A stretch of DNA of 39,595 nucleotides from a virus (taxonomy: Duplodnaviria; Heunggongvirae; Uroviricota; Caudoviricetes), in IMG/VR virus record IMGVR_UViG_2541047944_000005, positions 1-39,595 of that record. The stretch is one strand, 5' to 3'. Under the pieces are notes generated by a model that had not been told where the DNA came from, searched no databases, and was given only the letters and a program-made list of their open reading frames with translations. The first letter of the stretch is position 1. Every line of letters begins with the position of its first letter. Shown here in pieces: positions 6,276-39,595 of this stretch. A program made the translations under genes and the position numbers.

Positions 6276-6347
6276 TTCCTGTTCCGGGCCTTTCCTGCAC
6301 CTTGCGGCGGGAGGCCTTCGCACATCTGTAACAAGAGGATTGCCGCA

Positions 6348-6713
6348 ATGATTCTCGCCAACGACTTTCTTGAATATCTGCTCAACACAGAACGTGATCT
6401 TGCCGCTCGCGTGCGTGATCGTTATGACATGTACCTGAAATCCCTGCCTGTACCGCAGCTCGCTGACGGAAAGATTGTTATTGATGGTCGCTACATGATT
6501 GACAGCCACGAGGGAAATTACAGGCTTTACCGCATTGAAGGTGGCACCCCGTCCGTTATTGGCATTTACCAGCGCCCATCCTCTGCAATCGTCGATGTGA
6601 TTGCCGACAGCATCCGCATCACACATCGCCATGCCGACACAGAAGACACCGTGCTGGAAATTCAGCGGCTGGCTGCCGTTTGCCGTGACACCCTCAACGG
6701 CATGACGAAGTAA
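6348..6713 (+). CDS. hypothetical protein immediately upstream of replication gene A
   Basis: 121 aa, AAGAGGA RBS; same position as the small orfs preceding A in P2. Confidence 0.5.
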   Translation: MILANDFLEYLLNTERDLAARVRDRYDMYLKSLPVPQLADGKIVIDGRYMIDSHEGNYRLYRIEGGTPSVIGIYQRPSSAIVDVIADSIRITHRHADTEDTVLEIQRLAAVCRDTLNGMTK

Positions 6714-6719
6714 ATCACT

Positions 6720-9542: not shown

Positions 9543-9618
9543 AGCGCGCACAAAACAGGCAAAAGCGGGATTTAAAAATCCTGTAACCGATTAATTAATC
9601 AACATAAGGAAAAGCTAC

Positions 9619-10578: not shown

Positions 10579-10582
10579 ACCA

Positions 10583-10894
10583 ATGACGACACCAACCAGA
10601 CGGATAAGTTTCTATCTGAAGCCCGCCGCCGTCAAGAACGAAGGCGAAGCATGCGCCTGGCTGGACAGCCTTACACCAGAAGCCCGCAAAAGTGGTCAAC
10701 GCGTGGCTTTTCTGGCCGGACTGGCACTTATGAAAATTAATCCGGCAGAGGCTTACCGACTGGCTGCATGGGCTGACGATGAAGCGTTATCCCTGACACA
10801 AACCAGGACAGAACGCCCCGTGTCACAGCCAGTACCAACCGCACAGATAACCAGTCAGATGGCCGGAAATATCCGGGCATTATTTCCCGAATAA
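10583..10894 (+). CDS. parR: ParR-like adaptor protein
   Basis: 103 aa from ATG 10583 after AAGGAG; RRISFYLKPAAV...AWLDSL...RVAFLAGLALMKINP...NIRALFPE parallels R1 ParR (RRTIAFKLNP...DTLDSI...AALTAGLALYRQDP...LRSLFPKE) as recalled. Confidence 0.7.
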   Translation: MTTPTRRISFYLKPAAVKNEGEACAWLDSLTPEARKSGQRVAFLAGLALMKINPAEAYRLAAWADDEALSLTQTRTERPVSQPVPTAQITSQMAGNIRALFPE

Positions 10895-10957
10895 CACAAC
10901 ATCAGGGCGCATCCGCCCTGATGACTTTAATCCGGGAACATAAACAAAGGGGACACA

Positions 10958-11293
10958 ATGCAACACATTGACAGAGAAAAAGCGCAGCGACTGATTGAGC
11001 GAATGGAAGCGCTGGCGAAAGAAGAAAATGTCAACATCCAAAAAATAGCTGAATGTGGCCGGATAGTTCTTCGTCGTGAAAAAGACATCAAACAACTGAT
11101 GTCTGGCGAAACCAGCAAAACATGGACTTCAGGCGAGAAGACGATTTATTGCAGCTTCTGCAATAAATCCCAGTACGAAGTCACAAAGCTGATTGCCGGA
11201 CCGTCTGTTTACATCTGCAATGAGTGCGTTGATTTGTGCAATGAATTTATCAGGAGAGAAGTGACAGACCATGAAGAAAAAACGCATGAATGA
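10958..11293 (+). CDS. small protein with C-terminal ClpX-type C4 zinc-binding domain
   Basis: 111 aa; residues [38 protein letters not shown] are near-identical to the E. coli ClpX N-terminal zinc-binding domain ([37 protein letters not shown]) as recalled; no AAA+ module follows. Confidence 0.7.
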
Positions 11294-11459
11294 CGAATTT
11301 GACGGCTTTTAATTTTATCGGGGCGCACTGTCGCCATGCATGGAGAAAAACAATAAAAAAGATGAATAACTGCTCATGTCAGACGCGCTGCGGGCAAGTC
11401 TGGCACCCTGCCCTGTCTCCGCAAAGGCTGTTGTCTTAACACGACAGAGTATGCCAGCA

Positions 11460-11867
11460 TTAAATATAATCTTCTTCGTAGTCGCTGATTAATTCATTGC
11501 CATAATCAGACAGCAATTTCAAAGCAAAGGTAACTTCCTCAAGGGTAGCTATCCCCATTGCTGAAAACACCGTTAATTTAACCAGCAGCAGGGAGTTTGA
11601 AAGTTCGGAAGAGTTCATCATTAAAAATATTGATGCAGCCTGAAAAGCTGTGCGTTTATTCCCATCATGAAAGGCATGAGCCTTGGCTATACCAATCAAA
11701 TACATAGCAGCCAGAGCATGAATATCATCAACCCCTTCATAGTAGTGTAGTGTCCTGACGCGATTTAAAGCACCTTCAAGTAGCCCGTCATTGGCATTTC
11801 CGCTCTGGGGTAAAGTTTCAGCATGGATACGTTCTACTTGTTCTTTTGACAAAAACACTATGTCCAT
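11460..11867 (-). CDS. doc: Doc (death-on-curing) Fic-family toxin
   Basis: 135 aa; Fic motif HAFHDGNKRTA; start overlaps stop of the upstream antitoxin gene; AT-rich. Confidence 0.85.
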   Translation of the reverse strand: MDIVFLSKEQVERIHAETLPQSGNANDGLLEGALNRVRTLHYYEGVDDIHALAAMYLIGIAKAHAFHDGNKRTAFQAASIFLMMNSSELSNSLLLVKLTVFSAMGIATLEEVTFALKLLSDYGNELISDYEEDYI

Positions 11868-12223
11868 CAGTTATCCTCAAGCTTTTTAATGATATCCGCA
11901 TGTTTTTCTCTTGTACGCTTCATTGCATCTTCAAAAGACAATCCTTTTTTTCTCTGTGCGACAAGAGCTGGATGACGTTTTTCCAGATCTCTCACTGCAT
12001 TTATTAAGAGTGGTTGCTTCATTTTGTTTATTTGATCCCGCAGTTTTTTGGTTTTGCCAAGGACAGCCCGTATTTCAGGACTAAGATCAGAACCAGCAAG
12101 AACAACATCCTTCCCTCCCTGCGCCGTGATAACGACACTGCCACCGGAAGAAAGGTAATCCAGAATTTCACTCAGGTTCTCACGAAATTCATCATCAGTT
12201 ACAGTTTTCATATTCATTTCCAT
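11867..12223 (-). CDS. phd: Phd/YefM-family antitoxin
   Basis: 118 aa; N-terminal region EFRENLSEILDYLSSGGSVVITAQGGKDVVL resembles Phd/YefM; start may be the third ATG (12211). Longer than P1 Phd. Confidence 0.65.
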   Translation of the reverse strand: MEMNMKTVTDDEFRENLSEILDYLSSGGSVVITAQGGKDVVLAGSDLSPEIRAVLGKTKKLRDQINKMKQPLLINAVRDLEKRHPALVAQRKKGLSFEDAMKRTREKHADIIKKLEDN

Positions 12224-12823
12224 TATGCACGCCCATAACGTAAGTATAACTACTTGTTGGGCAGTAATAACACCGCCATATTTTCATTTTATACACCGCA
12301 CAATAGTGCACAAATTTGCACAATTTTTTTGAACGACTTTTTACCCTTCCGGCCCGCATGGCGGCTGGATCCGTCAAGGATCCGTGCGTGCACAAAAAAA
12401 CGCGTTTTTTTCTGCGCGCAGGTGACGGGGGAACAGCCCGCGTTTCAGGGGGTAAATAGCATTCCCTGAACGATGTCGCAGCGACACAACAGAATGGCTG
12501 TATCGCTCACGCTGAGCGTGAAAAAGACGTAAGGGGTTCTGATTTAATGGGATGAAAGGTAAGGCCGTCAAAATCGCACTGAGGCGGCGAGAACATGCAG
12601 TCAGCGCGGTGGGATTGTGTAAGAGTCTGGCCGTCGATGATGGCAATAAGTCGGAAGACGTCGTGAAATTATCTGATTGATACGGGAGCTGGAGAGTCGG
12701 GGCATAAATTTTTTATGCCCCGGCGAAGCAGCAGACAAGCGAAGCGCGTCAGTGATGCGGCACCTTGCCGACCACACTTCATAAGTGCAAAATACGAGCA
12801 AAGAAATCAATGGAGGCTGTCTT

Positions 12824-13362: not shown

Positions 13363-18120
<4,758 letters not shown>

Positions 18121-18274
18121 TGCTCCCCCTGAGTAATTACAGGAAGATTACCCGCGCGCGAAACCGTTCTCCTTAACCCCCTGTTCTGGCCGTTTTCTTA
18201 CAACAAAAGCCCTTTGTATCAGCCTGTTACGCTTTGCCATCATGACTGAAGAACCAGTCAGAGGGGCAAAAACT

Positions 18275-22156: not shown

Positions 22157-22545
22157 GCAACACATTTAAATTCAGCAGCCGGAGCGAAAATAATTTGCAG
22201 GGCGTAAATCATGATCTGGTGAAAGTGACCCGGCGGGCACTGGAAATCTCGGAAGTGGATTTTGGTATCACCGAAGGGTTGCGCAGCCGTTACCGCCAGA
22301 AGCAACTGGTGGCCACGGGTAAGAGCCAGACCATGAACAGCCGCCACCTTACGGGTCATGCCGTGGATGTTGTGGCTTATATCGGCAGCCAGGTGTCATG
22401 GGAATGGCCGCTGTACGAAAAAATCGCAACCGCATTCAGACAGGCCAGCCGGGAACTGAATATTCCGGTGGAATGGGGCGGCGACTGGAAGACCCTGAAA
22501 GACGGACCGCATTTTCAGTTACCACACGGAGCCTATCCGGCATGA
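22153..22545 (+). CDS. endolysin, peptidase M15 (T5-type L-Ala-D-Glu endopeptidase) family
   Basis: 130 aa; RRALEIS..DFGITEGLRS...SRHLTGHAVDVVAYI...GGDW...H pattern parallels phage T5 endolysin as recalled; not the P2 K lysozyme type. Confidence 0.75.
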   Translation: MSNTFKFSSRSENNLQGVNHDLVKVTRRALEISEVDFGITEGLRSRYRQKQLVATGKSQTMNSRHLTGHAVDVVAYIGSQVSWEWPLYEKIATAFRQASRELNIPVEWGGDWKTLKDGPHFQLPHGAYPA

Positions 22546-22949
22546 AGCTCTGGCCCACGCTTGGCATCGCTTTCCTTCTGATTGCCGGATGGGGAACATC
22601 CATGCGTCTGTCGTGGTCGCTGGGCCGGGAGAACGCCAGAAACGAAGCGCAGGCCAGCACCCTGAAAAGTACCGCCGACACCCTGAATATCATCAGCGCC
22701 GGGGTACAGGATATGCAGCAGGTGCTGGCGCAACTCCGCGTGGAAAATCAGCAACGCAATCAGGACGGAGAGGTAAGACGTGAACAGCTACGCAACGATA
22801 TTGCAAAAGATGAATGCGCCCACGCTTTGCCTGACGCTCGTTTTACTGACAGGCTGCGCAGGCACGCAGAACGCGCCACTGCCAGCGCCGTCAGTCCGGC
22901 TTATACCGCAGACGCTGACCATACCGGTAACGCCTCCCCCCTTCCCTGA
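22542..22949 (+). CDS. Rz-like i-spanin (LysB position)
   Basis: 135 aa from ATG 22542 overlapping endolysin stop; N-terminal TM MKLWPTLGIAFLLIAGW then coiled-coil-like region. Confidence 0.55.
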   Translation: MKLWPTLGIAFLLIAGWGTSMRLSWSLGRENARNEAQASTLKSTADTLNIISAGVQDMQQVLAQLRVENQQRNQDGEVRREQLRNDIAKDECAHALPDARFTDRLRRHAERATASAVSPAYTADADHTGNASPLP

Positions 22950-25110: not shown

Positions 25111-26007
25111 ATGCCCGCCGTTGACCTTTCCCAGTTACCGGAACCCGCCATCATCGCGGAGCCTGACTTTGAAGCAATTCTGGCTGACACAAAGGCCATG
25201 ATGATTGCGGCTTATCCCGCCGAACAGCGTGAAGCCGTTTCCGCCGCGCTGGAGCTGGAATCGGAACCCCTTAACGTTATCGCTCAAACCATGTCGTTTC
25301 GTGAAATGCTGTTACGCCAGCGGGTTAACGAGGGCGCACGCGCCTGCATGTTAAGCCACGGTTCAGGGACAAACCTGGACAACCTCGCGGGCAATATGAA
25401 CACAAAGCGCCTGGTTATCACTCCGGCAACGGATACCACCGACGCGGTGATGGAGAGCGACACCTCGCTGAGATTGCGGGCGCAACGGGCGTATGACGGC
25501 CTGAGTGTTGCTGGCCCGTCAGGTGCATACGAGTATTTTGCACGCAGCGCCAGCGGTCTGGTGCGTGATGCGCGGGCCATCAGCCCGTCTCCGGCCTGTG
25601 TGACGGTTTCCATCCTGTCCACTGAAGGCGACGGCACAGCAACGGAGGCGTTGCTTAATACCGTTCGCGCTGTTCTGAATGCAGAGGATACCCGCCCGGT
25701 GGCCGACCGCCTGACCGTACAGAGCGCCAGAATCGTGACATGGCGGCTGAATGCAAAACTGTACTTTTACCCCGGCCCGGAATCCGAACCTATTCTGGCC
25801 GCGGCTGAATCGTCGTTCAGGAAGTGGCTGGCTGAGCAGGGGCTTATCGGTCAGGACGTGGCGTTGTCCGCCATTGCTGCCGCACTGCATGTGCACGGTG
25901 TGCAACGCGTGGAGATAATCGAACCCACACAGAATATGGCCATCAGCGACATACAGGCGGCGCGCTGTGAGTCATTCACCATCAGCGAAGGTGGACGCAA
26001 TGAGTAA
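25111..26007 (+). CDS. J: baseplate assembly protein, P2 gpJ family
   Basis: 298 aa; GAGGGA RBS; position and size as P2 J. Confidence 0.85.
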   Translation: MPAVDLSQLPEPAIIAEPDFEAILADTKAMMIAAYPAEQREAVSAALELESEPLNVIAQTMSFREMLLRQRVNEGARACMLSHGSGTNLDNLAGNMNTKRLVITPATDTTDAVMESDTSLRLRAQRAYDGLSVAGPSGAYEYFARSASGLVRDARAISPSPACVTVSILSTEGDGTATEALLNTVRAVLNAEDTRPVADRLTVQSARIVTWRLNAKLYFYPGPESEPILAAAESSFRKWLAEQGLIGQDVALSAIAAALHVHGVQRVEIIEPTQNMAISDIQAARCESFTISEGGRNE

Positions 26008-26608
26008 TTCGTTGTTACCACCATCAGCCAGCAATTTCATGCGTTGTGCCGAAGCCGTCGGAACACGCATTACAGACATTCCGGTAGACCTCAACACGCT
26101 GTGGTCGCCGGACACCTGCCCGGTGCATCTGCTGCCTTATCTCGCCTGGGCGTTTTCCGTTGACCGCTGGGATCGCAACTGGCCGGAAGAGACAAAACGA
26201 CAGGTGATTCGTGATGCATGGCTGATACACCGACACAAAGGGACCATCAGCGCACTGCGAAGAGCCGTGGAGCCTCTCGGCTACCTGATTGAAGTAAAGG
26301 AGTGGTGGCAACTCAACGAGGAGCCGGGAACATTTCGCATTGTTGTCGGAGTACTTGATCAGGGCATCACCGATGAAATGTATCAGGAACTTGAGCGCCT
26401 TATTGCGGATGCAAAACCAGTAAGTCGCCATCTGACGGGGCTGGCGATCAGCCTGAGTGTGAACGGAAAGATTTTCGTTGGTACGGGATGCTATCACGGC
26501 GATGCCCTGACGGTTTATCCCTACACCCCGGAGTCCATTATTGTCGAAGGGGATTATTTCCCTGCCCCAGCCATTCATTTAATTGATAATCTGAGAGTAA
26601 ACGCATGA
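26000..26608 (+). CDS. I: baseplate/tail protein, P2 gpI family
   Basis: 202 aa from ATG 26000 overlapping J end in another frame. Confidence 0.75.
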   Translation: MSNSLLPPSASNFMRCAEAVGTRITDIPVDLNTLWSPDTCPVHLLPYLAWAFSVDRWDRNWPEETKRQVIRDAWLIHRHKGTISALRRAVEPLGYLIEVKEWWQLNEEPGTFRIVVGVLDQGITDEMYQELERLIADAKPVSRHLTGLAISLSVNGKIFVGTGCYHGDALTVYPYTPESIIVEGDYFPAPAIHLIDNLRVNA

Positions 26609-28203
26609 CAGTGAAATACTACGCCATTCTGACTAATCAGGGCGCGGCACGACTGGCTAACGCGACGATGCTCGGCAGTAAGCTGAATCTGACGCAAATG
26701 GCCGTTGGTGATGCAAATGGTGTGTTACCAACCCCAGACCCTGCACAAACAAAACTGATTAACCAGAAACGCATTGCACCGCTGAATCTTCTGAGTGTTG
26801 ACCCTAACAATCAGAGCCAGATTATTGCGGAGCAAATCATCCCTGAAAACGAGGGAGGATTCTGGATCCGTGAGATTGGTCTTTATGATGATGAAGGTGT
26901 ACTCATTGCGGTGGCAAACTGCCCGGAAACGTACAAACCGCAGTTGCAGGAAGGCAGTGGACGCACCCAGACTATCCGCATGATTCTGGTTGTCACGAAC
27001 ACCGAAGCCATCACGCTGAAAATCGACCCGTCTGTGGTTCTGGCAACCCGCAAATATGTGGATGATAAAATATCAGAGCACGAACAGTCACGACGTCACC
27101 AGGACGCCTCGCTGACCGTAAAAGGTTTTACTCAGTTAAGCAGTGCAATTAACAGTGAATCAGAAACACTGGCCGCAACACCGAAAGCGGTTAAGGCTGC
27201 ATATGACCTGGCTAACGAGAAATATACCGCCCAGAACGCCACCACTACACAAAAAGGGATTGTTCAGCTCAGTAGCGCCACGAACAGCACGTCTGAAACA
27301 CTGGCAGCGACACCAAAAGCTGTTAAGGCGGTAATGGATGAAACGAACAAGAAAGCACCATTAAACAGCCCGGCACTGACCGGAACGCCAACAACACCAA
27401 CAGCGCCACAGGGGACTAATAGTACCCAGATCGCAAGCACGGCTTTCGTTATGGACGCGATTGCCGCACTTGTAGATTCGTCACCTGATGCACTGAACAC
27501 GCTGAACGAACTGGCTGCGGCGCTGGGCAATGACCCGAATTTTGCGACCACCATGACTAACGCGCTTGCGGGTAAGCAACCGAAGGATGCCACCCTGACG
27601 GCGCTGGCGGAGCTTGCTACATCAGCAGATAAACTCCCATATTTTACAGGGGCAGATCGTGCCGCGTTAACCGCGTTGACAAGTGTTGGACGTGCCATTC
27701 TTGGTAAAACCAGCACTCAGGGAGTTCTTGATTACCTTGGTTTGGGGGAAGGCTCTGCACTGCCCGTTGGTGTACCTGTTCCGTGGCCGTCAGCAACACT
27801 GCCAGAGGGATGGCTGAAATGTAACGGCGCAGCATTTTCTTCTGAAATGTACCCCAAACTGGCAAAGGCTTACCCCACCAATAAATTACCGGATTTACGG
27901 GGTGAGTTTATTCGTGGCTGGGATGACGGACGAGGTATTGATGCAGGACGAGAGATACTTTCATTTCAGGAAGGCACTATCGTCTCCGGTTTTGATGATA
28001 ATGATACTGGGGATATCAGTTCACTCAGCTCAACACAATACGGATTTGGTGACACTTTAAGCTCTAATCAATGGGGGGCCATAAATGGCAAAAAGTGGAT
28101 ATTTGATGCATCCAGTAAAGGTGCACAAAAATATGACTGGTGGGCTTATGTATCAGCTCGTCCGCGTAATATTGCATTTAATTACATCGTAAGAGCGGCA
28201 TAG
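26605..28203 (+). CDS. H: tail fibre protein H with exchangeable C-terminal tip (currently cassette A)
   Basis: 532 aa; N-terminal region resembles P2 H (..LGLYDD.G.LIAVAN..E.YKP...EGSG..Q); STSETLAATPKAVKA repeats; C-terminal tail-collar-like segment GEGSALPVGVPVPWPSAT...PDLRGEFIRGWDDGRGID; ends RPRNIAFNYIVRAA. Confidence 0.85.
   Translation: MTVKYYAILTNQGAARLANATMLGSKLNLTQMAVGDANGVLPTPDPAQTKLINQKRIAPLNLLSVDPNNQSQIIAEQIIPENEGGFWIREIGLYDDEGVLIAVANCPETYKPQLQEGSGRTQTIRMILVVTNTEAITLKIDPSVVLATRKYVDDKISEHEQSRRHQDASLTVKGFTQLSSAINSESETLAATPKAVKAAYDLANEKYTAQNATTTQKGIVQLSSATNSTSETLAATPKAVKAVMDETNKKAPLNSPALTGTPTTPTAPQGTNSTQIASTAFVMDAIAALVDSSPDALNTLNELAAALGNDPNFATTMTNALAGKQPKDATLTALAELATSADKLPYFTGADRAALTALTSVGRAILGKTSTQGVLDYLGLGEGSALPVGVPVPWPSATLPEGWLKCNGAAFSSEMYPKLAKAYPTNKLPDLRGEFIRGWDDGRGIDAGREILSFQEGTIVSGFDDNDTGDISSLSSTQYGFGDTLSSNQWGAINGKKWIFDASSKGAQKYDWWAYVSARPRNIAFNYIVRAA
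27725..27750 (+). other. invertase crossover site 1 (hix/gix-like), inside H
   Basis: TTCTTGATTACC-TT-GGTTTGGGGGAA; left half matches the hixL half-site TTCTTGAAAACC as recalled; sits exactly where sequence conserved among the three cassettes begins. Confidence 0.55.
27739..27938 (+). repeat. about 200-bp conserved segment, copy A (in H)
   Basis: ggtttgggggaaggctctgcactgcccgttggtgtacc... recurs at 28211-28410 (direct) and 29621-29820 (inverted). Confidence 0.8.
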
Positions 28204-28222
28204 AAACGTTGGTTTGGGGGAA
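28197..28222 (+). other. invertase crossover site 2 (direct orientation relative to site 1)
   Basis: GGCATAGAAACG-TT-GGTTTGGGGGAA spanning the H stop codon; inner half identical to site 1. Confidence 0.45.
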
Positions 28223-28690
28223 GGCTCTGCACTGCCCGTTGGTGTACCCGTTCCGTGGCCCTCAGCCACACCGCCAGCAGGGTGGCTGAAATGTAACGGC
28301 GCAGCATTTTCTTCTGAAATGTACCCCAAACTGGCAAAAGCCTACCCCGCGAATAAATTACCGGATTTACGCGGAGAATTTATCCGTGGCTGGGATGATG
28401 GGCGAGGAATTGATGCGGCACGCGCTTTATTGAGCATTCAAAACGGGATGTTGGAAAAACACCGCCATATTGTTGTAGCTAACGATGGATATGACACAAA
28501 AGATGAATGGGAGTTGGCTACGATTTTCAAAAAAACATATACACAAGGCAGGGGGCTTGATGCCACAAATACAGGAGGGAGTTTGATTCCATCACCAACG
28601 CTTCATTCACGAGGAAGTATTGGTAACACAGGTGGTAGTGAAACCCGCCCCCGCAATATTGCATTTAACTATATCGTGAGGGCGGCTTAG
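28211..28690 (+). other. alternative tail-fibre C-terminal cassette B (no own start codon)
   Basis: Encodes GLGEGSALPVGVPVPWPSATPPAGWLKCNGAAF...RPRNIAFNYIVRAA in the H codon phase relative to the crossover centre; begins with conserved segment copy B (about 90% identical to A); distinct central 80 aa. Confidence 0.7.
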
Positions 28691-28696
28691 TTATAT

Positions 28697-29314
28697 TCAA
28701 CTGGCTGCTGCCAGAGGCATTTCCGGCCAGTTGATATCCGGTGCAGTGCTGATGTCAGTCGCATTAAGCACATCTATGAAATCAAGCACGGCGTTTAGTT
28801 TTTCCGTCTCCTGGGGCGTCAATCGGCGTCCGGCTCGTAGTTTGAGATTTATAAGCTCAACAGATGCCATTGCCTGTTCCTCAAGTTGCTGACGATGCGC
28901 TCCGGCAGCTTCCAGTTCTGCTGCGTGCTGTCGTCCCGCATCTGTCACCCAGGTCTCACCATCCCAGACATCATAGATAGTAGCTGGCTGTTTCACCGTC
29001 GTATCAGGAGGGTAATCTCCCGGTTGTGTGATTTGCACAGCGTTACCATTCTCTGTGCTGTAAACCGTTTCGCCTCTGTGGTCTGGAACATATTTCCAGA
29101 TGTTCTGGTCGGTATCACGACAGACAGCGAAGCCGGGGCGTTTTTCTGGTGGCGCGTCAATGCATGAGTGAGCCGGAATTCCAACACCATAAGCGAGATA
29201 CTCAACAGTGGCAGAGAGATATTCACGGTTTTCAGCATCGTAGTTATAAACGGTAATATCGCCTGCAGTTATAGCGATACCATTCTGATCAAGTACTGCA
29301 GCAGCATTATTCAT
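28697..29314 (-). CDS. tail fibre assembly chaperone (Tfa; Mu U / P2 G-like)
   Basis: 205 aa; C-terminus DISTAPDINWPEMP resembles the Mu U ending (NPDWPELP) as recalled; follows cassette C on the minus strand with stop/start overlap. Confidence 0.75.
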   Translation of the reverse strand: MNNAAAVLDQNGIAITAGDITVYNYDAENREYLSATVEYLAYGVGIPAHSCIDAPPEKRPGFAVCRDTDQNIWKYVPDHRGETVYSTENGNAVQITQPGDYPPDTTVKQPATIYDVWDGETWVTDAGRQHAAELEAAGAHRQQLEEQAMASVELINLKLRAGRRLTPQETEKLNAVLDFIDVLNATDISTAPDINWPEMPLAAAS

Positions 29315-29820
29315 TAAGTAGCCCTTACAATATAGTTAAACGCAATATTACGGGGGCGGTTTTCCGTTCCTGTATTCCCTCCATTGGCACCTAATCTATA
29401 AACACCACGAGTGCCAATAGCACGTAGTGAAGATGGAACTTTTACACCTGACTCATCTGTTTTAACAATCCCGCCATCACCGTATGTAGCCAGTATACCA
29501 GGGTTTGTTCCTGCACGGGCGCTATTTGCGGCAAGCCCTTCACCAGTCCATAACTCCATATAGTGAATATGATCTATAACCGAATGTGATTGTGCATTAA
29601 GCAAGGAACGCCCTGAATCAATTCCCCGCCCGTCATCCCAGCCACGAATAAACTCACCCCGTAAATCCGGTAATTTATTCGTGGGGTAAGCCTTTGCCAG
29701 TTTGGGGTACATTTCAGAAGAAAATGCTGCGCCGTTACATTTCAGCCATCCCTCTGGCAGTGTTGCTGACGGCCACGGAACAGGCACACCAACGGGCAGT
29801 GCAGAGCCTTCCCCCAAACC
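29314..29820 (-). other. alternative tail-fibre C-terminal cassette C (inverted orientation)
   Basis: Minus strand encodes GLGEGSALPVGVPVPWPSATLPEGWLKCNGAAF...RPRNIAFNYIVRAT; begins with inverted conserved segment copy C (29621-29820), nearly identical to copy A. Confidence 0.7.
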
Positions 29821-29834
29821 AACGTTTTCGTTTT
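29809..29834 (-). other. invertase crossover site 3 (inverted relative to sites 1 and 2)
   Basis: Reverse complement reads AAAACGAAAACG-TT-GGTTTGGGGGAA; lies between cassette C and the invertase gene. Confidence 0.5.
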
Positions 29835-29888
29835 TATCCCTACCTATACCAACTCTGTATTTTTCACGAAACAAAGAGGATGTTTTTT

Positions 29889-30488
29889 ATGCAAATTGGC
29901 TATATTCGTGTGTCAACAAATGACCAGAACACGGATTTACAACGCAATGCACTGAACTGCGCAGGATGTGAACTGATTTTTGAAGATAAAATCAGCGGAA
30001 CGAAATCAGCCAGACCGGGATTGAAAAAACTGCTCAGAACGCTATCAGAAGGAGATACGTTGGTTGTCTGGAAGCTGGACAGACTGGGCAGAAGTATGAA
30101 ACACCTGATCACGCTTATTGAGGAATTGCGGGAAAAAGGTGTTAATTTCCGTAGTCTGACGGACAGCATTGACACATCAACACCCATGGGGCGTTTCTTT
30201 TTTCACGTCATGGGGGCTTTAGCCGAAATGGAACGTGAATTAATTGTAGAGCGTACACTGGCCGGGCTGGCAGCAGCACGCGCACAAGGACGCATTGGCG
30301 GACGTCGCCCGAAGTTGACAAAAGAACAACACGAGCAAATAGCGAGGCTGATTAAAAACGGTCATGACAGGAAACAACTGGCGATCATTTACGACATCGG
30401 CATATCGACGATTTATCGTTATCACCCTGTAGGCGATATACAGGCTGAAGAAACAACCAGGCAGACTCAGGAAAATAAAAACCGCTAA
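29889..30488 (+). CDS. serine recombinase DNA invertase, Hin/Gin/Pin/Cin family
   Basis: 199 aa MQIGYIRVSTNDQNTDLQRNAL...TLVVWKLDRLGRS...SLTDSIDTSTPMGRFFFHVMGALAEMERELIVERTLAGLAAARAQGR near-colinear with Hin/Gin as recalled; C-terminal HTH. Upstream part of track ORF 29694-30488 is antisense to cassette C. Confidence 0.9.
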   Translation: MQIGYIRVSTNDQNTDLQRNALNCAGCELIFEDKISGTKSARPGLKKLLRTLSEGDTLVVWKLDRLGRSMKHLITLIEELREKGVNFRSLTDSIDTSTPMGRFFFHVMGALAEMERELIVERTLAGLAAARAQGRIGGRRPKLTKEQHEQIARLIKNGHDRKQLAIIYDIGISTIYRYHPVGDIQAEETTRQTQENKNR

Positions 30489-30506
30489 TCTGACCATTAG
30501 CGGTTT
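30477..30506. terminator. hairpin between convergent invertase and U genes
   Basis: aaaaccgctaat-ctgacc-attagcggtttt perfect 12-bp stem. Confidence 0.4.
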
Positions 30507-30514
30507 TGCGTTAA

Positions 30515-31009
30515 TCAAAACAGTCCTTTAACGGAGCTGGCCGCGCTGTTAAGGGATGATGTGACCTTATCTTTGAAGCCGGACAGCATATCACTGAACG
30601 ATGAGGATTGCAGGCGCTCTCGCAAATCCTCATCACAGCGTTCAAGGGTCAGTGAAAATTCTATCTTTTTCGCCTTACCGTAGCGATCAAACTCGGAGCG
30701 GGTCGTATTCGTTCCGGTCAGGACATACATGCCGTAAATCTGCCCGACACCATCAATCAGAGGCCAGGGGCGTCCTGTATATGCCTGCGTGGTCAGCAAC
30801 GAAAGCGACACTTCGCCACCTGTAATTTCAGGATAAAGCACACCAGAAAGAACGATGCGATCATCGCCTGCCCCGATATACTGCCAGCTTGCTGAACGGT
30901 TAACGCGTTCATTTTTCACATGCCGCCAGCTTTTGTTTTGCTGTAACTGCTGATGCGGCAGCGTGCGCAGCTCAAAAACAAACATGCCGTAGATCATCAT
31001 CATGGCCAT
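30515..31009 (-). CDS. U: tail protein, P2 gpU family
   Basis: 164 aa; N-terminus MF.VFEL.T.P......W.H and size match P2 U as recalled; immediately downstream of tape measure on the minus strand. Confidence 0.7.
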   Translation of the reverse strand: MAMMMIYGMFVFELRTLPHQQLQQNKSWRHVKNERVNRSASWQYIGAGDDRIVLSGVLYPEITGGEVSLSLLTTQAYTGRPWPLIDGVGQIYGMYVLTGTNTTRSEFDRYGKAKKIEFSLTLERCDEDLRERLQSSSFSDMLSGFKDKVTSSLNSAASSVKGLF

Positions 31010-31015
31010 GACTCC

Positions 31016-33832
31016 TCAATCTTTATCGTAAAAACTGCCACGCCCGGCACGGGCGCGCCGTTCCGTTTCTGCCCTGACCATTTCACCGACCAGTTTCGCC
31101 AGTTCGCGGGGATTCTGCGTAACAACGTTATGCAGATGAACATGAATTTCACCGCCAAATCCGGAGACAGCAGGCTCCCGGTTACGGGAAGCTGCAGGAA
31201 CTGATGCCACTGGCGATCGTATGGCCTCCGCCACCGAGCGGGAGCTGGCCGCAACAACAGGGACCAGCGCCGGAGGCAGCGGAGCCGGGACTACGGGTGT
31301 GATATTAATTGCGGGGGCAGGCTTACTGACCTGCGCAATCTTCCGCTCCTGCCACTCCCCACGAACAGCCAGTGCGCGGGGCAGGTTCTTAAAGACAATA
31401 TCGCCGGGGCCAATGCGTTTTTTCGTCTCATCAACCAGCTTACCTGTGTTATCAGCAATTTTGCTGAGTCTGCGTAGCGTCCCGGTATTGCTGTCTGTGA
31501 GCGGTTTGTTGTCTTTGGGTTTATCACCTCCGGTGCCATTGCCATTTTCCACAGGCTTCGGCGGATTGATTTTCGCAAGGTCCCCCTGAAGCAAGGCAAC
31601 CTTGTCCTGAAGAATGGCCGCACGCTGTGCGTCTTCGATTTTCTTGCGCGCCTTTTCCGCTTCATCCGGAAGGACGCCAAGTTTTTCAAGTATCCACGCC
31701 AGCGTATCCAGTAGCATTTTTGCAGGTGTCAGAACAAGCTGTAACGCACCGCCAAGAACGTTACCGAATATCTCGCCAGCACTGGTACATTTATCCAGCG
31801 TTTCCTTGCTGGACTCCATCGGTGACAGCAGCGATTTAAACCAGTTAAACACCTGGCTGATCCCGCTTCCGATTGCGTCAAAAACAGGACCAAACCGTTC
31901 AAAGGTTTCGCGCAACGGGGTCAGCCTTTCCATAATCCCGCTGAACACCCCGGCAAAAAATGCCCTGATGGGATCCCAGTATTTCCAGATAAGAACGGCA
32001 GCTCCGGTAAGCGCAGCCACGATAAGACCAACCGGACTGAACAGCGCCCCGATAGCGCCTCCCAGTAAAGAAACGGAACCCGTCACCATTCCCCATAGTG
32101 CTGGCAGGACCCTGACAGCATTCATTGATCCGGTCAGGAGAGAAAAACCAAGACGCAGTTTTGCCAGCGGACCAGCAAGCACACCAATAGCCAGCGACAA
32201 CGAGCCAACCGTTGCAGTCATTGCCAGCAACGCACCGCCTGCTATCAGTAGCTGGCGCGTCAGTGCCGGATGGGCCTGCGCCAGCGCCGTCACCCTTGAT
32301 ACCACCCGCGTGAGCCACTGCGTGACAGAACGCAGCGGACCGTCAATCAGATCTGCAATGCGGATGCGCAACCCTTCCCATGCACTGCCGAGTGATTTCA
32401 GATCGCCGTCAAGGTTGTTGGCCATAACCTTTGCTGTGCGTTCAGCCTCACCGCGCGCGCCTTCAAGTTCTTTTCTCAGTTTGGGTAAGGAACCGTCACC
32501 CGCTGCATCAACGAGCGCCATAAACGATGTGAAAGCCTCTTCTCCGGCAATGTCCTTAAAGAACGATACCCGGTCAACTTCCCCGTATTTGCGGGTGGCT
32601 TTATAAAGGTCGGCCAGCACATCCTCCATCGGGCGCATTTTGCCCCCGGCATCCGAGACAGACACGCCCAGCTCTTTCAGCGCCTCTGCTGCCGCCTTTG
32701 GCGGTGATGCCAGACGAGCCAGGCTGGCACGCATTGCCGTCCCGGCATCACTTCCCCTGATACCCATATTCGCCAGCACGCCCGCCATCGCTGCGGCCTG
32801 CTCCAGCGATATTCCCAGCTTGCCCGCCACCGGACCTGCATATTTCATGGTTTCGCCCAGTGCGCGAAGGTCAGTGTTGGTACGGGTAAACGCTGCGGTG
32901 AGTGTGTCACCGACCCGGTCCATCTGGTCAGCAGAAAGGCCGAACTGCGTCAGGATATTTGAGCCAATATCTGCCGTCTCGCCGAGATCCATACCGCCAG
33001 CCGTTGCCATGCTCAGCACGCCGGGAAGCGCAGCCTGAATGGCCTGCGGAGTGAAGCCAGCCATTGCAAGAAATGCCTGCCCACTGGCGGCATCGCCTGC
33101 GGTGAACTGCGTTTCAGAGCCAAGTTTTAACGCCTGCTCACGCAACGCCTTAAACTGCGGGCTGTTCTGGTCGATTCGCGTCAGTGCCTGAACGCGGGAC
33201 ATCTCTTTCCCGAACCCGATCGCAGGCTGCAAAAAACGCCCGGCAGCATAGCCGCCAGCCGCTGCCGCACCAATTGCCAGCGCACCACCTGTTTTCAGTT
33301 TTCCCGCGGTTTCCTGCGCGCGCGAATACCGCTCACGCGCCCGCGTTACACGCGCAAGCGCCTGCCGTTCGCGTTCAAGCTGGTTGTTGTACTGTTCGGT
33401 GCGTCTGATGGCCTGCTGGATGGTGTTATCGCTGCCTGTCAGGGAAATGCCGTGGCGTTTCAGCTCTCCGCCAAGCTCCCGCATTTTCTGAATTTCCCGT
33501 GTGCGCGATTCATTCAGGCGTTCAAGCCGGGTGCTTAACTGCTGCATCAGCTTTTGTTGTTTTTCGCTGAGCACTGTACCCGTGCGTTGTAACTGATTAA
33601 GGGCGTTAAGCTGGCGTCGTGCTTTCACGATGCCAGCATCCGCTTTACTGACAGCGTCACGGGCGCGCTCAAATGAACGCGCCTGACGCTCGAGATTTTT
33701 GATCGCCCCCTGCGTTCGCTGGATGGAGTCACCAAACTGCCCCATCAGGCGGCGGGCGTTTTCGGCAGGCCGGGTCAGCCTGTCAACGGCGCTGAAAGCG
33801 ACCCGGATATCAAGAGTCTTCATTATCTGCAT
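31016..33832 (-). CDS. T: tail tape measure protein, P2 gpT family
   Basis: 938 aa; long coiled-coil N-terminal third, Gly/Ala-rich hydrophobic middle, position between E/E' and U. Confidence 0.8.
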   Translation of the reverse strand: MQIMKTLDIRVAFSAVDRLTRPAENARRLMGQFGDSIQRTQGAIKNLERQARSFERARDAVSKADAGIVKARRQLNALNQLQRTGTVLSEKQQKLMQQLSTRLERLNESRTREIQKMRELGGELKRHGISLTGSDNTIQQAIRRTEQYNNQLERERQALARVTRARERYSRAQETAGKLKTGGALAIGAAAAGGYAAGRFLQPAIGFGKEMSRVQALTRIDQNSPQFKALREQALKLGSETQFTAGDAASGQAFLAMAGFTPQAIQAALPGVLSMATAGGMDLGETADIGSNILTQFGLSADQMDRVGDTLTAAFTRTNTDLRALGETMKYAGPVAGKLGISLEQAAAMAGVLANMGIRGSDAGTAMRASLARLASPPKAAAEALKELGVSVSDAGGKMRPMEDVLADLYKATRKYGEVDRVSFFKDIAGEEAFTSFMALVDAAGDGSLPKLRKELEGARGEAERTAKVMANNLDGDLKSLGSAWEGLRIRIADLIDGPLRSVTQWLTRVVSRVTALAQAHPALTRQLLIAGGALLAMTATVGSLSLAIGVLAGPLAKLRLGFSLLTGSMNAVRVLPALWGMVTGSVSLLGGAIGALFSPVGLIVAALTGAAVLIWKYWDPIRAFFAGVFSGIMERLTPLRETFERFGPVFDAIGSGISQVFNWFKSLLSPMESSKETLDKCTSAGEIFGNVLGGALQLVLTPAKMLLDTLAWILEKLGVLPDEAEKARKKIEDAQRAAILQDKVALLQGDLAKINPPKPVENGNGTGGDKPKDNKPLTDSNTGTLRRLSKIADNTGKLVDETKKRIGPGDIVFKNLPRALAVRGEWQERKIAQVSKPAPAINITPVVPAPLPPALVPVVAASSRSVAEAIRSPVASVPAASRNREPAVSGFGGEIHVHLHNVVTQNPRELAKLVGEMVRAETERRARAGRGSFYDKD

Positions 33833-34078
33833 TCCCGCTGCGAAGTGCCGCCCGCTCGCGCCAGCTAACCACTTCGCCGGGCGTCATCATGAAGATTTCG
33901 GCGGGCGACCAGTTAAAAATGGCGGCAATATCCGCCACCAGATCTTCGATGTGCTCAAAGCACACCAGGGTGATTACGCTGCCGTCTCCTGCACGCTCTT
34001 CGCGCCAGAGTCTGGCTCGCTCATAAAATTTACAGCCACAGCGCACAACTGAATAAAATCGCGTGACGACATTTTTTT
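33810..34078 (-). CDS. tail chaperone E' extension (reached by -1 frameshift from E)
   Basis: Second frame is open from about the slippery run to 33810, overlapping the T start; the shift direction matches a -1 slip. Shift site assigned to the T7 run 34072-34078 (A7 on coding strand). Confidence 0.45.
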
Positions 34079-34348
34079 AATCATCACTTCATCCAGTCGT
34101 GGCGAGGTCACGCGAGGCAACAGCGTAAACATGGTATCCGCTTTCAGATTCAGCACATCAGACAGCGACAGACCACGCAGGGATCCAGCCTGCTCAATAG
34201 CCCCGGTGATCTCCACATACGTGATTTTTTCGCCACCACGCTCAATTGGTCGGGTCAGTTTTACGCCACGTTCGACAGCCATATCCTCACCTGCCGTCAC
34301 ATCATCCGCCACGGTGTTATTCCGGGTTTCAGTATCGATGTCTTTCAT
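33974..34348 (-). CDS. E: tail assembly chaperone, P2 gpE family
   Basis: 124 aa between tube gene FII and tape measure; contains the A7 slippery run. Confidence 0.65.
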   Translation of the reverse strand: MKDIDTETRNNTVADDVTAGEDMAVERGVKLTRPIERGGEKITYVEITGAIEQAGSLRGLSLSDVLNLKADTMFTLLPRVTSPRLDEVMIKKMSSRDFIQLCAVAVNFMSEPDSGAKSVQETAA

Positions 34349-34403
34349 CAGTTGTCTCCTTTTCAGTCAGAGGCGACGCACTGCGCCGCCTGCATATTAC
34401 TTA

Positions 34404-34916
34404 TCAGCCAAGCCCAAGCGCGGAACGGATACGGTCAGGCACAATGTCCTTGCCGTCCTTCCGGTAGATGTGGTTCAACAGGTCGATTTCCCACAGCGGG
34501 CGATCGTTAACGCTCAGCTTGTAGTAGGTGTTTTTGACAGCGTAAGTGTGTGATGTGGCTTCGCCCTGTTTGGCTTCCCCCATATCAATTTCCGTCACAC
34601 GCCCGCGCATCTCGATTTCATACAGATCGCTTTCTGCATCGGTGTAGTATTCACCCGCAAAACGCAGCAGCGTGCCGTCAATCGTGCCGCCATATTTAAG
34701 GAACAGCGCACGAACAGCTCCCCCCATGACAAAACTCGCATCAAGCGCGGAGTCGTCCAGACCGAGATCAATACTTACCGCCCCCATCATGCCACCACCA
34801 CGATAGCTGTCGGTTTTGCGCGTCAGTTTGGGCGGCGTGACGGATGTCACTTTACCCACTTCGTTTTCACCATCCACAAACAACGTAAAAAAGCGAAGAT
34901 GTTTTGGTACAGCCAT
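34404..34916 (-). CDS. FII: tail tube protein, P2 gpFII family
   Basis: 170 aa; size and position after sheath gene match P2 FII. Confidence 0.8.
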   Translation of the reverse strand: MAVPKHLRFFTLFVDGENEVGKVTSVTPPKLTRKTDSYRGGGMMGAVSIDLGLDDSALDASFVMGGAVRALFLKYGGTIDGTLLRFAGEYYTDAESDLYEIEMRGRVTEIDMGEAKQGEATSHTYAVKNTYYKLSVNDRPLWEIDLLNHIYRKDGKDIVPDRIRSALGLG

Positions 34917-36100
34917 CAGGCACCTCCCAGCACCGCAAATGCGGGACCAAAGAATTCATCAGTAAACGTCTGGTAAAGCTCCATGTCTTCCAGCGGGGGA
35001 ACAGGCGTATATTTGTAGCGAATACGCACACGTCCCTGACGTAAATTCGTGGTGCCGTTATCCACCACGTCATACCAGCACTCCGCACCAATCAGTTTCC
35101 CGGCAGTAACCAGCGAATCCAGTTTTGCCCTGATGGCGCTGATAACATCCTTCACGTTCGCAGGTGTCAGTGGACTGTCGATGGTTTCAAACTGCGCTTC
35201 CGCAATTGAATCAGCCAGCACCTGTGCGGTTCGGGTATACACCTCAAAGATGTAGGCGTTCGTTTCCGGTGTGCGGTTGCCCCAGAAGCGGAACCCGTTG
35301 CGACGAATAATGGTCGTGATTTCTTTGTTGTTGAGGCTGTTGGCATCGCTGTCTTCGGCCTGCAACGACCAGAACACATGCCTGGACATTCCCAGCACAT
35401 TTTTAACCGGAACGTTGGACAGCGATTTGTGCCAGCCCTGCTCATGGTCAATGTACGCACGAAGGCCGCACGCATAGGCAGGCGCGGGGAACGTTTCGTT
35501 TTTGCCACTTTTCGGGTTGTAGGCGATGAAGTCCGGCCATAAGAGCATCACCTCACGTTCGTTGAATTTCTGGCGGTAGGTAATCGCCTCAGCCATCGTG
35601 TTACAGCCGTGACATGAGGCATACACAAACGCGCGCAGTTTACCTGCAATCACGCACAGGGATTTTGTTACAGCCTCCGTGTCCAGCTCCGGCGCGGCCA
35701 GAATACGCGGACGGTATCCGATGCTTTCATCCTGCTCTGCAACAAGCAGCGCATACATCCCCGTATAGCTGCCGTCATCCTCAGAACCACCGATAACCAG
35801 TTGATCCTGCGTCTTTCCGTCTTCTTCTTTGTGTTCAGCCACGCGAACGACGATCACCTTTGTGCTCACCTGGTCTGCGATGGCCTTAAGCGCACGATAA
35901 AGCGTCCCCGTTGTCCCGCATTTTCCCAGCACGTCATTGACGCGGGTCAGCAGTGTGGGCTTATTCAGCGGGAACAGCTTCGCGTCCGCATCATCCGCCG
36001 TTGCCACGATACCGATAACGCTGGAATCAACATCGTTAATCGCTGTTACCAGGTCGGTATTTTCCGTAACACGGGCACCATGAAAACGAGTTTCACTCAT
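34916..36100 (-). CDS. FI: contractile tail sheath protein, P2 gpFI family
   Basis: 394 aa; segments LRAFVYASCHG, EQGWHKSLSNV, FRFWGNRT, YTPVPPLE parallel P2 FI as recalled. Confidence 0.85.
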   Translation of the reverse strand: MSETRFHGARVTENTDLVTAINDVDSSVIGIVATADDADAKLFPLNKPTLLTRVNDVLGKCGTTGTLYRALKAIADQVSTKVIVVRVAEHKEEDGKTQDQLVIGGSEDDGSYTGMYALLVAEQDESIGYRPRILAAPELDTEAVTKSLCVIAGKLRAFVYASCHGCNTMAEAITYRQKFNEREVMLLWPDFIAYNPKSGKNETFPAPAYACGLRAYIDHEQGWHKSLSNVPVKNVLGMSRHVFWSLQAEDSDANSLNNKEITTIIRRNGFRFWGNRTPETNAYIFEVYTRTAQVLADSIAEAQFETIDSPLTPANVKDVISAIRAKLDSLVTAGKLIGAECWYDVVDNGTTNLRQGRVRIRYKYTPVPPLEDMELYQTFTDEFFGPAFAVLGGA

Positions 36101-36257
36101 AGCTTCAGCCCCTTGTATCCGTTAAATGATTCGGCAACAATCATCACCCACCACGCGCGTAATCTCACCCCTGCGCCGTTCTCCCGACCCAGCGACAACA
36201 AAAAGCAGTAACCCCCTCCGCACGCACATGCGACCATGCCGCACAGGGAGGGAACAG

Positions 36258-37367
36258 ATGACCGACACCACCATGCAATTGCTCAGTCAGAGCACAGACC
36301 CCGTGAAAATGCCGGATTTTGATATTCTCGCGGAGGGTAAAACGCTGTCAGGCGTGGCAGAGCGCCTGATGAGCCTGTCACTGACCGACAACCGGGGATT
36401 TGAGGCGGACCAGCTCACCATCACGCTGGATGATGCGGATGGTCAGTTGCAGCTACCGCCACGGGGCGCGCGCCTGACGGTTCTCATTGGCTGGAAAGGA
36501 GAACCGCTGACAGAAAAAGGCACTTACATTGTTGATGAAATCGCTCACGAAGGACCGCCGGACAGGCTGACTGTTTCAGCCAGAAGCGCAGATTTTCGGG
36601 ATGAATTTAACGTTAAACGTGAGGTGTCCTGGCATGATGTGACCGTTGAGCGTGTGGTATCCGCCATCGCTCATCGGTATGGTCTGAAACCACAAATCAG
36701 CGAAATGCTGATGGATATCGAAATCGACCACGCCGACCAGACCGAAGAAAGCGACATGTCCTTCCTTACGCGCATGGCGGAAATGCTGGGCGCAATCACC
36801 ACGGTAAAAAGCGGCAATCTGTTATTCATCATGCCAGGTGGTGGCGTGAACGCACAGGGCCAGCCGTTGCCCTCGTTCGCCATTACACGCAGCAGCGGCG
36901 ATCGCCATCAGTTCCGTATTGCTGACCGCGAGGCGTATACGGGGGTACGCGCCTACTGGCTTGATCTTAATTACGGGAAAAAGAAAAAAGTCAGCGTGAA
37001 ACGCCGCAAACCACCAAAACCCCAAAAGGAGAAAAGCAGCAGCCGTGAAGGAGATTATATGGAAGGCGCGGAAGGCAATGTGTTTGTGTTACGCAAGACC
37101 TATCAGAACGAACAGGCAGCAAGACGCGCAGCGGCGGCAAAGTGGCAGCAACTACAACGCGGAGCCGCATCATTCTCCATCACGCTGGCGCGTGGACGTG
37201 CAGAACTCTACCCCGAAATGCATGGTACGGTAACAGGATTTAAAAGCGAGATTGATAATCAGGACTGGATCATTGCAAAAGCCGAGCACACCATTGATAA
37301 CAGCGGCTTTACCACGCAGCTTGAGCTTGAAGCAAAAATCCCGGAATGGATAGCAGAAACAGAGTGA
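36258..37367 (+). CDS. D: tail protein D (late control gene D family)
   Basis: 369 aa from ATG 36258 after GGGAGGG RBS (track ORF starts earlier); size and position before ogr as P2 D. Confidence 0.75.
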   Translation: MTDTTMQLLSQSTDPVKMPDFDILAEGKTLSGVAERLMSLSLTDNRGFEADQLTITLDDADGQLQLPPRGARLTVLIGWKGEPLTEKGTYIVDEIAHEGPPDRLTVSARSADFRDEFNVKREVSWHDVTVERVVSAIAHRYGLKPQISEMLMDIEIDHADQTEESDMSFLTRMAEMLGAITTVKSGNLLFIMPGGGVNAQGQPLPSFAITRSSGDRHQFRIADREAYTGVRAYWLDLNYGKKKKVSVKRRKPPKPQKEKSSSREGDYMEGAEGNVFVLRKTYQNEQAARRAAAAKWQQLQRGAASFSITLARGRAELYPEMHGTVTGFKSEIDNQDWIIAKAEHTIDNSGFTTQLELEAKIPEWIAETE

Positions 37368-37409
37368 GCAACTTAGAATAGCGGCAGCACCACGTTAAGG
37401 GAGGTCGCT

Positions 37410-37670
37410 ATGTTCCGTTGTCCGCTTTGTGGCGCATCTGCCCGTATCCGCACCAGTCGTTCGGAAAATGATTCAAACACCGTACGGAAAAAATATTACC
37501 AGTGTAACAACCTGGAATGCGGCATAAGTTTCTCAACACTGGAAGCTTTCCATAAATTCACATCGAAACACGCCCCCGGCGTTCACTCTTCAGAAGGTAT
37601 CCCGTGGCATGAGTTGCCAGCTTCACACAGGGGAAACAATCAGATGAGTTTGCCTTTATCTCAGAATTAA
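37410..37670 (+). CDS. ogr: Ogr/Delta-family zinc-finger late transcription activator
   Basis: MFRCPLCGASARIRTSR...YYQCNNLECGISF matches the P2 Ogr Cys4 motif as recalled (MFHCPLCQHAAHARTSR...YHQCQNVNCSATF); AAGGGAGG RBS. Confidence 0.8.
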   Translation: MFRCPLCGASARIRTSRSENDSNTVRKKYYQCNNLECGISFSTLEAFHKFTSKHAPGVHSSEGIPWHELPASHRGNNQMSLPLSQN

Positions 37671-37861
37671 CAGGCAGAATTGCCGGAGTAACAAAAAAGC
37701 GATAGATTACGCGCGGGTGCCTTTCGGCTGATGGTCGGAGGGAATACCCGAAGGCCGGATGTGGAAAGGCCCCGGAAAACATCTCTGTTTAACCGAGGCC
37801 CTAACATATCTACCTTAAGCAAGTGATAGGTTAGCGCCTCTCCAACAAAGGAGCAAGCGCT

Positions 37862-38002
37862 ATGTCGCAAAAATCGCTTACGGCCATCACGTTCTGCGTG
37901 ACGGTAATCCTCATAATCTGGATGCTGCACGGTTCGCTGTGTGAAATACGGATGAGCTTCTGGGGAGCGGAGTTTGCGGCGTTCTTACAGTGTAAGCAGT
38001 AA
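37862..38002 (+). CDS. Hok/Gef-family type I toxin peptide
   Basis: Hand-translated 46 aa MSQKSLTAITFCVTVILIIWMLHGSLCEIRMSFWGAEFAAFLQCKQ: TM helix, SLCEIR and AAF motifs as in Hok/Gef; GC-rich fold-back-prone leader 37700-37860. Confidence 0.65.
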   Translation: MSQKSLTAITFCVTVILIIWMLHGSLCEIRMSFWGAEFAAFLQCKQ

Positions 38003-38088
38003 GGAAACCGCGACGGGGGAGCAATCCCCCGTCAATCGGTTGCCAGGGTAAGGTCGATAAGGCACCCTATCTCACAGACATGAACAAC

Positions 38089-38122
38089 AAACCCGCAGCG
38101 TAAAAACTGCGGGTTTTCTTTT
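38089..38122 (+). terminator. intrinsic terminator after the hok-like gene
   Basis: aacccgcag-cgtaaaaa-ctgcgggtt followed by TTCTTTTT. Confidence 0.55.
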
Positions 38123-38153
38123 TGGTTCCCTCACTCATGAGGACACCAAAAAC

Positions 38154-38184
38154 AAAGCCCACAGCATAGAATGCTGTGGGCTTT
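38154..38184. terminator. bidirectional intrinsic terminator, probable serS terminator
   Basis: aaagcccacagcat-agaa-tgctgtgggcttt flanked by A-run upstream and T-run downstream. Confidence 0.5.
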
Positions 38185-38302
38185 TTGCATTCAAAGATGG
38201 ACGTTATATGGACACTTAAAAATAAAATCCATTTATTTTCAAATAATTAAACTTCTACTTAAAGCGCCCGCAGGCGCTTTTTAGATTCAGAAAAATTGGG
38301 TA

Positions 38303-39595
<1,293 letters not shown>

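Follow-up and report, generated by a model that had tools for sequence, protein, structure and literature searches.

Given that the records of phages P2 and 186 place the tail genes FI, FII, E, E′, T, U and D in this order on the strand of the tail-fibre gene H, we asked why the prophage studied here carries FI to U on the minus strand but H and D on the plus strand, and whether this arrangement marks a single genome or a whole lineage. In the window, by which we mean the whole stretch of 39,595 nucleotides that was analysed, there is no single FI-to-D operon on the H strand; such an operon defines the gene order of P2 and 186 but not membership of the Peduoviridae.

Layout of the prophage and of its tail genes

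The open reading frame (ORF) map, the Pfam matches and a tblastn search with P2 proteins give the window the usual prophage permutation of a P2-family phage (Table 1). Judged by its sequence, the element is a P88-like prophage of the genus Xuanwuvirus, family Peduoviridae, adjoining serS. Positions 1009-26000 are 96.9% identical to P88 over 79% of their length and positions 26000-38500 match P88-type phages at 93.6% over 73%, which yields a combined similarity of roughly 0.7-0.77, and part of the sequence is uncovered in the P88 comparison because of an IS insertion and a different shufflon. The ICTV guideline for a genus is about 70% nucleotide similarity, and the window shows the high genome-wide similarity to P88 or P884B11 by which Xuanwuvirus is recognized. 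It also has the gene order of that genus as annotated in P88 and Citrobacter phage Shae_phiSM, namely the invertase (+), U, T, E′, E, FII and FI (−), and D (+). All seven homologues of the Peduoviridae tail module (FI, FII, E, T, U, D and Ogr) have a Pfam match, that of E being weak, and P2 tail proteins match the window by tblastn with E-values from 1e-12 to 1e-111.

Table 1. Features of the window, with predicted regulatory elements marked as such
Feature	Position	Strand	Evidence and remarks
int	1-1008	−	C repressor also present
Replication gene A	6720-9542	+	
Portal Q	13363-14409	−	
Terminase P	16450-18120	−	
O, N, M, L, X, lysis genes, R, S, V, W, J, I		+	
Tail fibre H	26605-28203	+	Followed by the invertible tail-fibre segment
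Serine DNA invertase (Hin/Gin/Cin type)	29889-30488	+	Pfam Resolvase and HTH_7; adjoins the block but lies outside it
Bidirectional intrinsic-terminator-like hairpin (predicted)	30478-30507		12-bp stem; A-run on one side, T-run on the other
Tail protein U	30515-31009	−	Pfam Phage_P2_GpU 1.5e-38; 46% identical to P2 U; last in the flipped operon
Tape measure T	31016-33832	−	Pfam PhageMin_Tail 3.6e-58; 33% identical to P2 T
Overlapping frame, putative E′ (frameshift extension of E)	33810-34046	−	ORF list
Tail assembly chaperone E	33974-34348	−	Pfam Phage_TAC_7, weak, below the curated cut-off
Tail tube FII	34404-34916	−	Pfam Phage_tube 2.1e-45
Tail sheath FI	34916-36100	−	Pfam Phage_sheath_1, Gp18_domIII_N, sheath_1C; 45% identical to P2 FI
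FI/D spacer	36101-36257		157 bp
−10 hexamer of the FI promoter (predicted), GATGAT	36140-36145	−	Clade consensus GAttAT; predicted start near 36133
Ogr/B-type activator dyad (predicted), TGT-N12-AGA	36180-36197	−	Centre 36188.5
−10 hexamer of the D promoter (predicted), GACCAT	36232-36237	+	Clade consensus gA.CAT; predicted start near 36244
Tail/baseplate hub protein D	36258-37367	+	Pfam Phage_GPD; 50% identical to P2 D
Ogr/Delta-family zinc-finger late activator ogr	37410-37670	+	Pfam Ogr_Delta 1e-15
Host gene serS	38303-39595	−	

Of 31 P2 proteins searched against the window by tblastn, 24 matched. The matches keep the order and strand of P2, apart from FI, FII, E, T and U: these make up one clean flipped block on the minus strand (30515-36100), with FI as the first gene of its operon. 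The E protein is 35% identical to P2 E (E = 1.6e-12 by tblastn), and the frame that overlaps its gene probably supplies E′, by analogy with E and E′ of P2 and with two small tail-protein CDSs in the same place in P88. D starts at an ATG behind a ribosome-binding-site-like GGGAGGG (36246-36252), and the surrounding sequence is kept in the closest relatives. At the left junction, the stop codon of the invertase gene (30488) lies 26 bp from that of U (30515), and between these convergent genes sits the hairpin of Table 1, which was found by a terminator scan and has a predicted RNA fold of −14.7 kcal/mol (z = −3.4). A sequence-only reading of this DNA had described FI to U as inverted relative to P2, D as split from its operon and divergent from FI across a 157-bp spacer, and the left breakpoint as adjoining the invertase gene; the P2 protein search, the P2 and 186 records and the strands of the Pfam matches bear out the inversion, and the coordinates of the spacer and of the two stop codons agree with the rest.

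Outside the tail genes, several features of the window deserve mention. The only Rfam matches above the gathering score are in the early region at 5.8-6.0 kb, where the Hfq-binding RNA isrK (5791-5865, +) is followed by a C4 antisense RNA (5901-5988); no RNA family was found in the FI-to-U region. Accessory cargo lies 3′ of the replication gene (9619-12223); it comprises a ParM-type partition ATPase (9619-10578, +) and a Phd/YefM antitoxin (11867-12223, −) paired with a Fic/Doc toxin (11460-11867, −) in a stretch of low GC content (42%). An IS21-family element (14639-16440, +), encoding an IstA with rve and HTH domains and an IstB ATPase, is inserted between Q and P on the strand opposite to them, and since it splits the P-Q late operon, this copy of the prophage may be defective. 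IS100-type elements occupy other sites in the relatives 520873 and 503458.

Tail-gene orientation among relatives and its origin

A megablast of window positions 26000-38500 for close relatives returned P88, P884B11, 500465-2, 520873, 503458, PhiR44_2 and Shae_phiSM, all of them collinear with the window on one strand at 93-96% identity within this 12.5-kb region. More distant relatives, reached through the sheath protein, have the flipped order too: Senquatrovirus SEN5, whose sheath is 55% identical and which lacks an invertase gene, Serratia phage KSP20, where D and FI are divergent, and a Klebsiella record. The sequence-only reading had left the cause of the inversion open and had itself named a shared order among close relatives as grounds for giving up its interpretation. 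The inversion relative to P2 stands, but the interpretation is upheld only in part, since P88, P884B11, Shae_phiSM and 500465-2 share the order, which is thus the norm among the window’s close relatives.

The orientation is also fixed in complete E. coli genomes. Of 5426 such genomes, 1356 have the window’s FI/D junction (positions 35700-36660) in one contiguous match, almost always at 95-100% identity, and 621 have its invertase/U junction in this form, so that about 25% carry the flipped order. The opposite orientation was sought with a synthetic query in which the 3′ end of U was joined to the region upstream of D, as in the P2 order. Although both halves of this query are present in 1411 of the E. 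coli genomes, they never occur together on one strand, and in none of these 1411 part-matching genomes does the query reach at least 80% coverage at one place. We therefore did not find both orientations among close genomes (1356 E. coli genomes with the native junction versus 0/1411 with the opposite one).

We then surveyed a wider range of hosts, drawing on contigs of one GTDB genome per species and on IMG/VR and keeping the best 80 hits of each collection. This gave 160 loci with an FI alignment, around which FII, T, U, D, ogr, I, J and the invertase gene were placed by tblastn; D could be placed in 149. A locus was called flipped when D lay divergent upstream of FI with I and J on the opposite strand beyond U. 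Among these 149 loci from the best 80 per collection, 98 are flipped, with sheaths 55-100% identical to that of the window, and 51 have the canonical P2 order, with sheaths 47.5-51% identical; the split between sheath identity and orientation has no exception among them. The hosts of the flipped loci include Salmonella, Enterobacter, Mixta, Pantoea, Erwinia, Izhakiella, Serratia, Kosakonia, Yokenella, Xenorhabdus, Citrobacter and Hafnia. A contig labelled as the Firmicute “Vagococcus sp. WN89Y” (NZ_JBQPOM010000071.1) also holds a flipped prophage, with a sheath 97% identical to the window’s, and is probably a contamination or a mislabelled assembly. Unrooted neighbour-joining trees of FI and of D each have a branch that parts all flipped from all canonical loci. 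Because P2, 186, prophages of Burkholderia, Pseudomonas, Acinetobacter and Stenotrophomonas, and the outgroup Mannheimia phage PHL101 all have the canonical orientation, this is likely the ancestral state and the flipped one derived, in a single clade infecting Enterobacterales. PHL101, a more distant member of the Peduoviridae, departs from the P2 tail-gene order in another way: within its positions 1-12306, T is found upstream of V instead of in the E/U interval, and the genes left on the H strand are FI, FII, E, U and D together.

In light of this distribution, we are confident that the flipped F unit, opposed in orientation to D and to the baseplate and tail-fibre operon, is a lineage norm, most simply traced to one ancient inversion, rather than an event specific to this genome, a product of the invertase or an error of assembly. 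The proximity of the invertase gene to the block nonetheless invites the thought that this Hin/Gin-type enzyme flipped it, recently or as a programmed switch, through secondary crossover sites at the junctions, the more so as invertases of this family can use quasi-sites. However, the crossover motif WWACSTTGGTTTGGGGGAAG occurs exactly at 27732-27751 (+), 28204-28223 (+) and 29808-29827 (−), and a window-wide scan that allowed three mismatches returned no further match (0.01 expected by chance), with no crossover-like site at either junction (30489-30514 and 36101-36257). These sites bound the tail-fibre segment (27732-29827) in inverted orientation, but not the FI-to-U block. Nor does any inverted repeat pair the two block junctions, the sole long inverted repeats of the window being those of the tail-fibre cassettes (27734-27950, 28204-28414 and 29609-29827), and on this point the repeat and motif scans agree with the sequence-only reading. 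The constancy of the orientation in E. coli speaks against a switch as well, and so does the occurrence of the invertase gene: within the best 80 hits per collection, 43 of the 50 flipped loci whose interval was fully covered, SEN5 among them, have no invertase beside the block, and the gene occupies the same slot about as often in canonical loci (5/46) as in flipped ones (7/50). Since it is about equally common in both arrangements, the invertase is a bystander in a slot next to the tail-fibre genes; as the motif positions indicate, it serves a three-site tail-fibre shufflon, and its adjacency to the block is coincidental. A flip by this enzyme is, in our judgement, very improbable. The inversions mentioned in a paper on a Xenorhabdus tailocin concern tail-fibre segments only. 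The shufflon itself (27732-29874) holds three alternative C-terminal cassettes with a Collar domain, at the 3′ end of H, at 28214-28690 (+) and at 29314-29874 (−), together with a single tail-fibre assembly gene (28697-29314, −).

It is also conceivable that the F operon was replaced by the sheath-to-U cassette of another contractile-tail element, inserted in the opposite orientation. Phage genomes are mosaic, no footprint of an inversion survives at the locus, and the family offers other gene-order variants, among them the relocated T of PHL101 and the exchange of tail operon members in Smp131, an instance of the variation described for P2-like tail operons (PMC3931495). Against such a cassette, the proteins of the block are 33-46% identical to those of P2, much like D (50%), J (54%), V (46%), N (42%) and Q (47%); most other structural proteins range from 26 to 54%, with I at 61% and the N-terminal part of H at 72%. 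We favour an inversion in place because the block is as diverged from P2 as most other structural proteins. Moreover, the FI and D trees share the split between flipped and canonical loci, with similar median identities within the clade (73.3% for FI and 73.4% for D), and since these trees agree, the block and its flanks would have evolved together. The dyad in the FI/D spacer, finally, exactly matches that in the P/O spacer of the same phage (below). We thus regard a foreign cassette as unlikely. As for chimeric junctions at about 30500 and 36100-36260, the assembly artefact that the sequence-only reading had allowed for is practically out of the question: not only are both junctions contiguous in hundreds of complete E. 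coli genomes (1356 for FI/D, 621 for invertase/U), but the order recurs in the independently sequenced isolated phages P88, Shae_phiSM, SEN5 and KSP20, and the spacer has a conserved regulatory architecture.

A single ancient inversion is the simplest reading of these data, on grounds of parsimony and of the unrooted neighbour-joining trees. Alignments of U C-termini and D N-termini, made in search of a remodelled old U/D breakpoint, show that these ends vary in every lineage.

Predicted late promoters in the FI/D spacer

For the question of how a late gene such as D keeps its regulation once outside its operon, the flipped clade is a natural test case. Late promoters of the P2 type carry the consensus TGT-N12-ACA, which is bound by activators of the Ogr/B/Delta family (PMC3931495), and activator sites are annotated in the P2 and 186 records. 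An exact search of the window for TGT-N12-ACA gave five matches, against about ten expected, and none in the late spacers; it missed the site between FI and D because the window reads AGA in place of ACA. The dyad was first seen in an alignment of 36 representative FI/D spacers of the flipped clade, where the element TTTTGTTGT-N12-(A/G)(C/G)A is strongly conserved, and was then confirmed with a longer pattern. This alignment and a position profile of 89 unique spacers both show TGT as near-invariant across the clade, with many members having the full TGT-N12-ACA. In the window, the dyad sits in TTGTTGT-N12-AGAAC, a 12-base pattern with one exact copy in the P/O spacer (18183-18206), one in the FI/D spacer (36178-36201) and none elsewhere in the window; by our own calculation, about 0.005 occurrences would be expected by chance in 2 x 39.6 kb.

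Anchored on the dyad, the profile of the 89 spacers has two conservation peaks at equal offset on either side, and the predicted −10 hexamers of Table 1 face FI and D in the window. The centre of the dyad lies at about −55.5 for both predicted starts, which are 111 bp apart. This matches the P2 record, where a single pO/pP activator site (3057-3087) lies between starts at 3016 and 3127, likewise 111 bp apart, so that one site is 55-56 bp from both start sites; the P/O spacer of the window has the same symmetry. A P2-type late promoter combines a TGT-N12-ACA-like dyad, centred at about −55, with a weak −10 hexamer downstream and lacks a good −35. This sequence architecture is present and is conserved on both sides of the dyad, although the conservation among related spacers partly reflects shared ancestry. 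A σ70 scan found no promoter in the FI/D spacer, both −10-like hexamers being weak, which fits activator-dependent promoters but does not argue for them. With a −10-like hexamer some 55 bp away from the dyad in either direction, which is the layout of pP/pO in P2, D probably has its own late promoter.

A third activator-like site, TCGTGGTCGCTGGGCCGGGAGAAC (22611-22634, +), has an N12 almost identical to that of the FI/D site and a broken TGT half-site. Situated upstream of R, within ORF 22398-22949 of the lysis region, it may act as a weak late promoter inside the operon or may be a relic. As for gene O, the mechanically called ORF starts at ATG 18242 and the predicted pO start is near 18250; a GAGGGG ribosome-binding site precedes ATG 18276 and the alignment with P2 O begins at 18287, which makes 18276 probably the real start codon of O.

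Combining the predicted elements with the history proposed above, the F transcription unit would have been inverted once in the ancestor of the clade, and as a whole, from its late promoter pF through FI, FII, E/E′ and T to U. FI to U would now be read leftward from a promoter of the P2 pF type in the FI/D spacer, and their transcript would end at the hairpin 30478-30507, in common with the convergent invertase transcript. Transcription of D would run rightward from a second promoter that shares the one Ogr-type site of the spacer, and D, though out of its operon, would probably still be under late control. That the pF activator site was co-opted after the inversion for a second, divergent D promoter, with one dyad shared in the manner of pP/pO, is a proposal whose chances we see as evenly balanced; if true, it would be a natural example of a split operon that was repaired by sharing an existing activator site. 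We know of no description of bidirectional use of the FI/D activator site in P88-like phages, and the spacer offers a compact and conserved candidate for a bidirectional, activator-dependent promoter.

Comparison with known phages

The flipped order is already known, insofar as deposited annotations of isolated phages (P88, SEN4/5 and KSP20) show it and ICTV genera have it; within the flipped clade, the window is unexceptional. The literature that we covered on P88, SEN4/5, the C. rodentium prophages, P2 hotspots and P2-like diversity (2026) makes no mention of tail-gene orientation. The predicted bidirectional FI/D late promoter is the only possibly new element here. These results caution that the gene order of P2 is not universal in the Peduoviridae, and that what looks like a “rearrangement” when P2 is the sole reference can simply be how another genus is normally arranged.

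The closest known systems are P88 and the other Xuanwuvirus phages (P884B11, 500465-2, 520873 and Shae_phiSM), with 93-97% nucleotide identity over 73-79% of the window. They share with it H, the shufflon and the invertase gene on the plus strand, U to FI on the minus strand, D on the plus strand, and the same FI/D spacer sequence. The window differs from them in the IS21-family element between Q and P and in its shufflon, which has three Collar-domain cassettes and one assembly gene where P88 has two fibre/assembly pairs. At a greater distance, SEN4/SEN5, KSP20 and prophages of Klebsiella, Enterobacter, Pantoea, Erwinia and Xenorhabdus have the flipped F unit and a D divergent from FI as well, with a spacer of about 150-190 bp that contains a TGT-N12-ACA dyad in SEN4/SEN5, KSP20 and the prophages of the same clade. 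In contrast to the Xuanwuvirus relatives, their sheaths are 55-85% identical to that of the window, most of them have no invertase gene beside U, and their accessory genes are different.

P2 and 186, finally, have the same gene set, the same internal order in the F unit, and the same logic of late activation, in which an Ogr/B zinc-finger protein is combined with a dyad at about −55. In those two phages, the H strand carries FI to U, and the F operon ends with D, which overlaps U or directly follows it, whereas in the window the F unit is flipped and D stands alone, with protein identities to P2 and 186 of 33-61% (72% for the N-terminal part of H).
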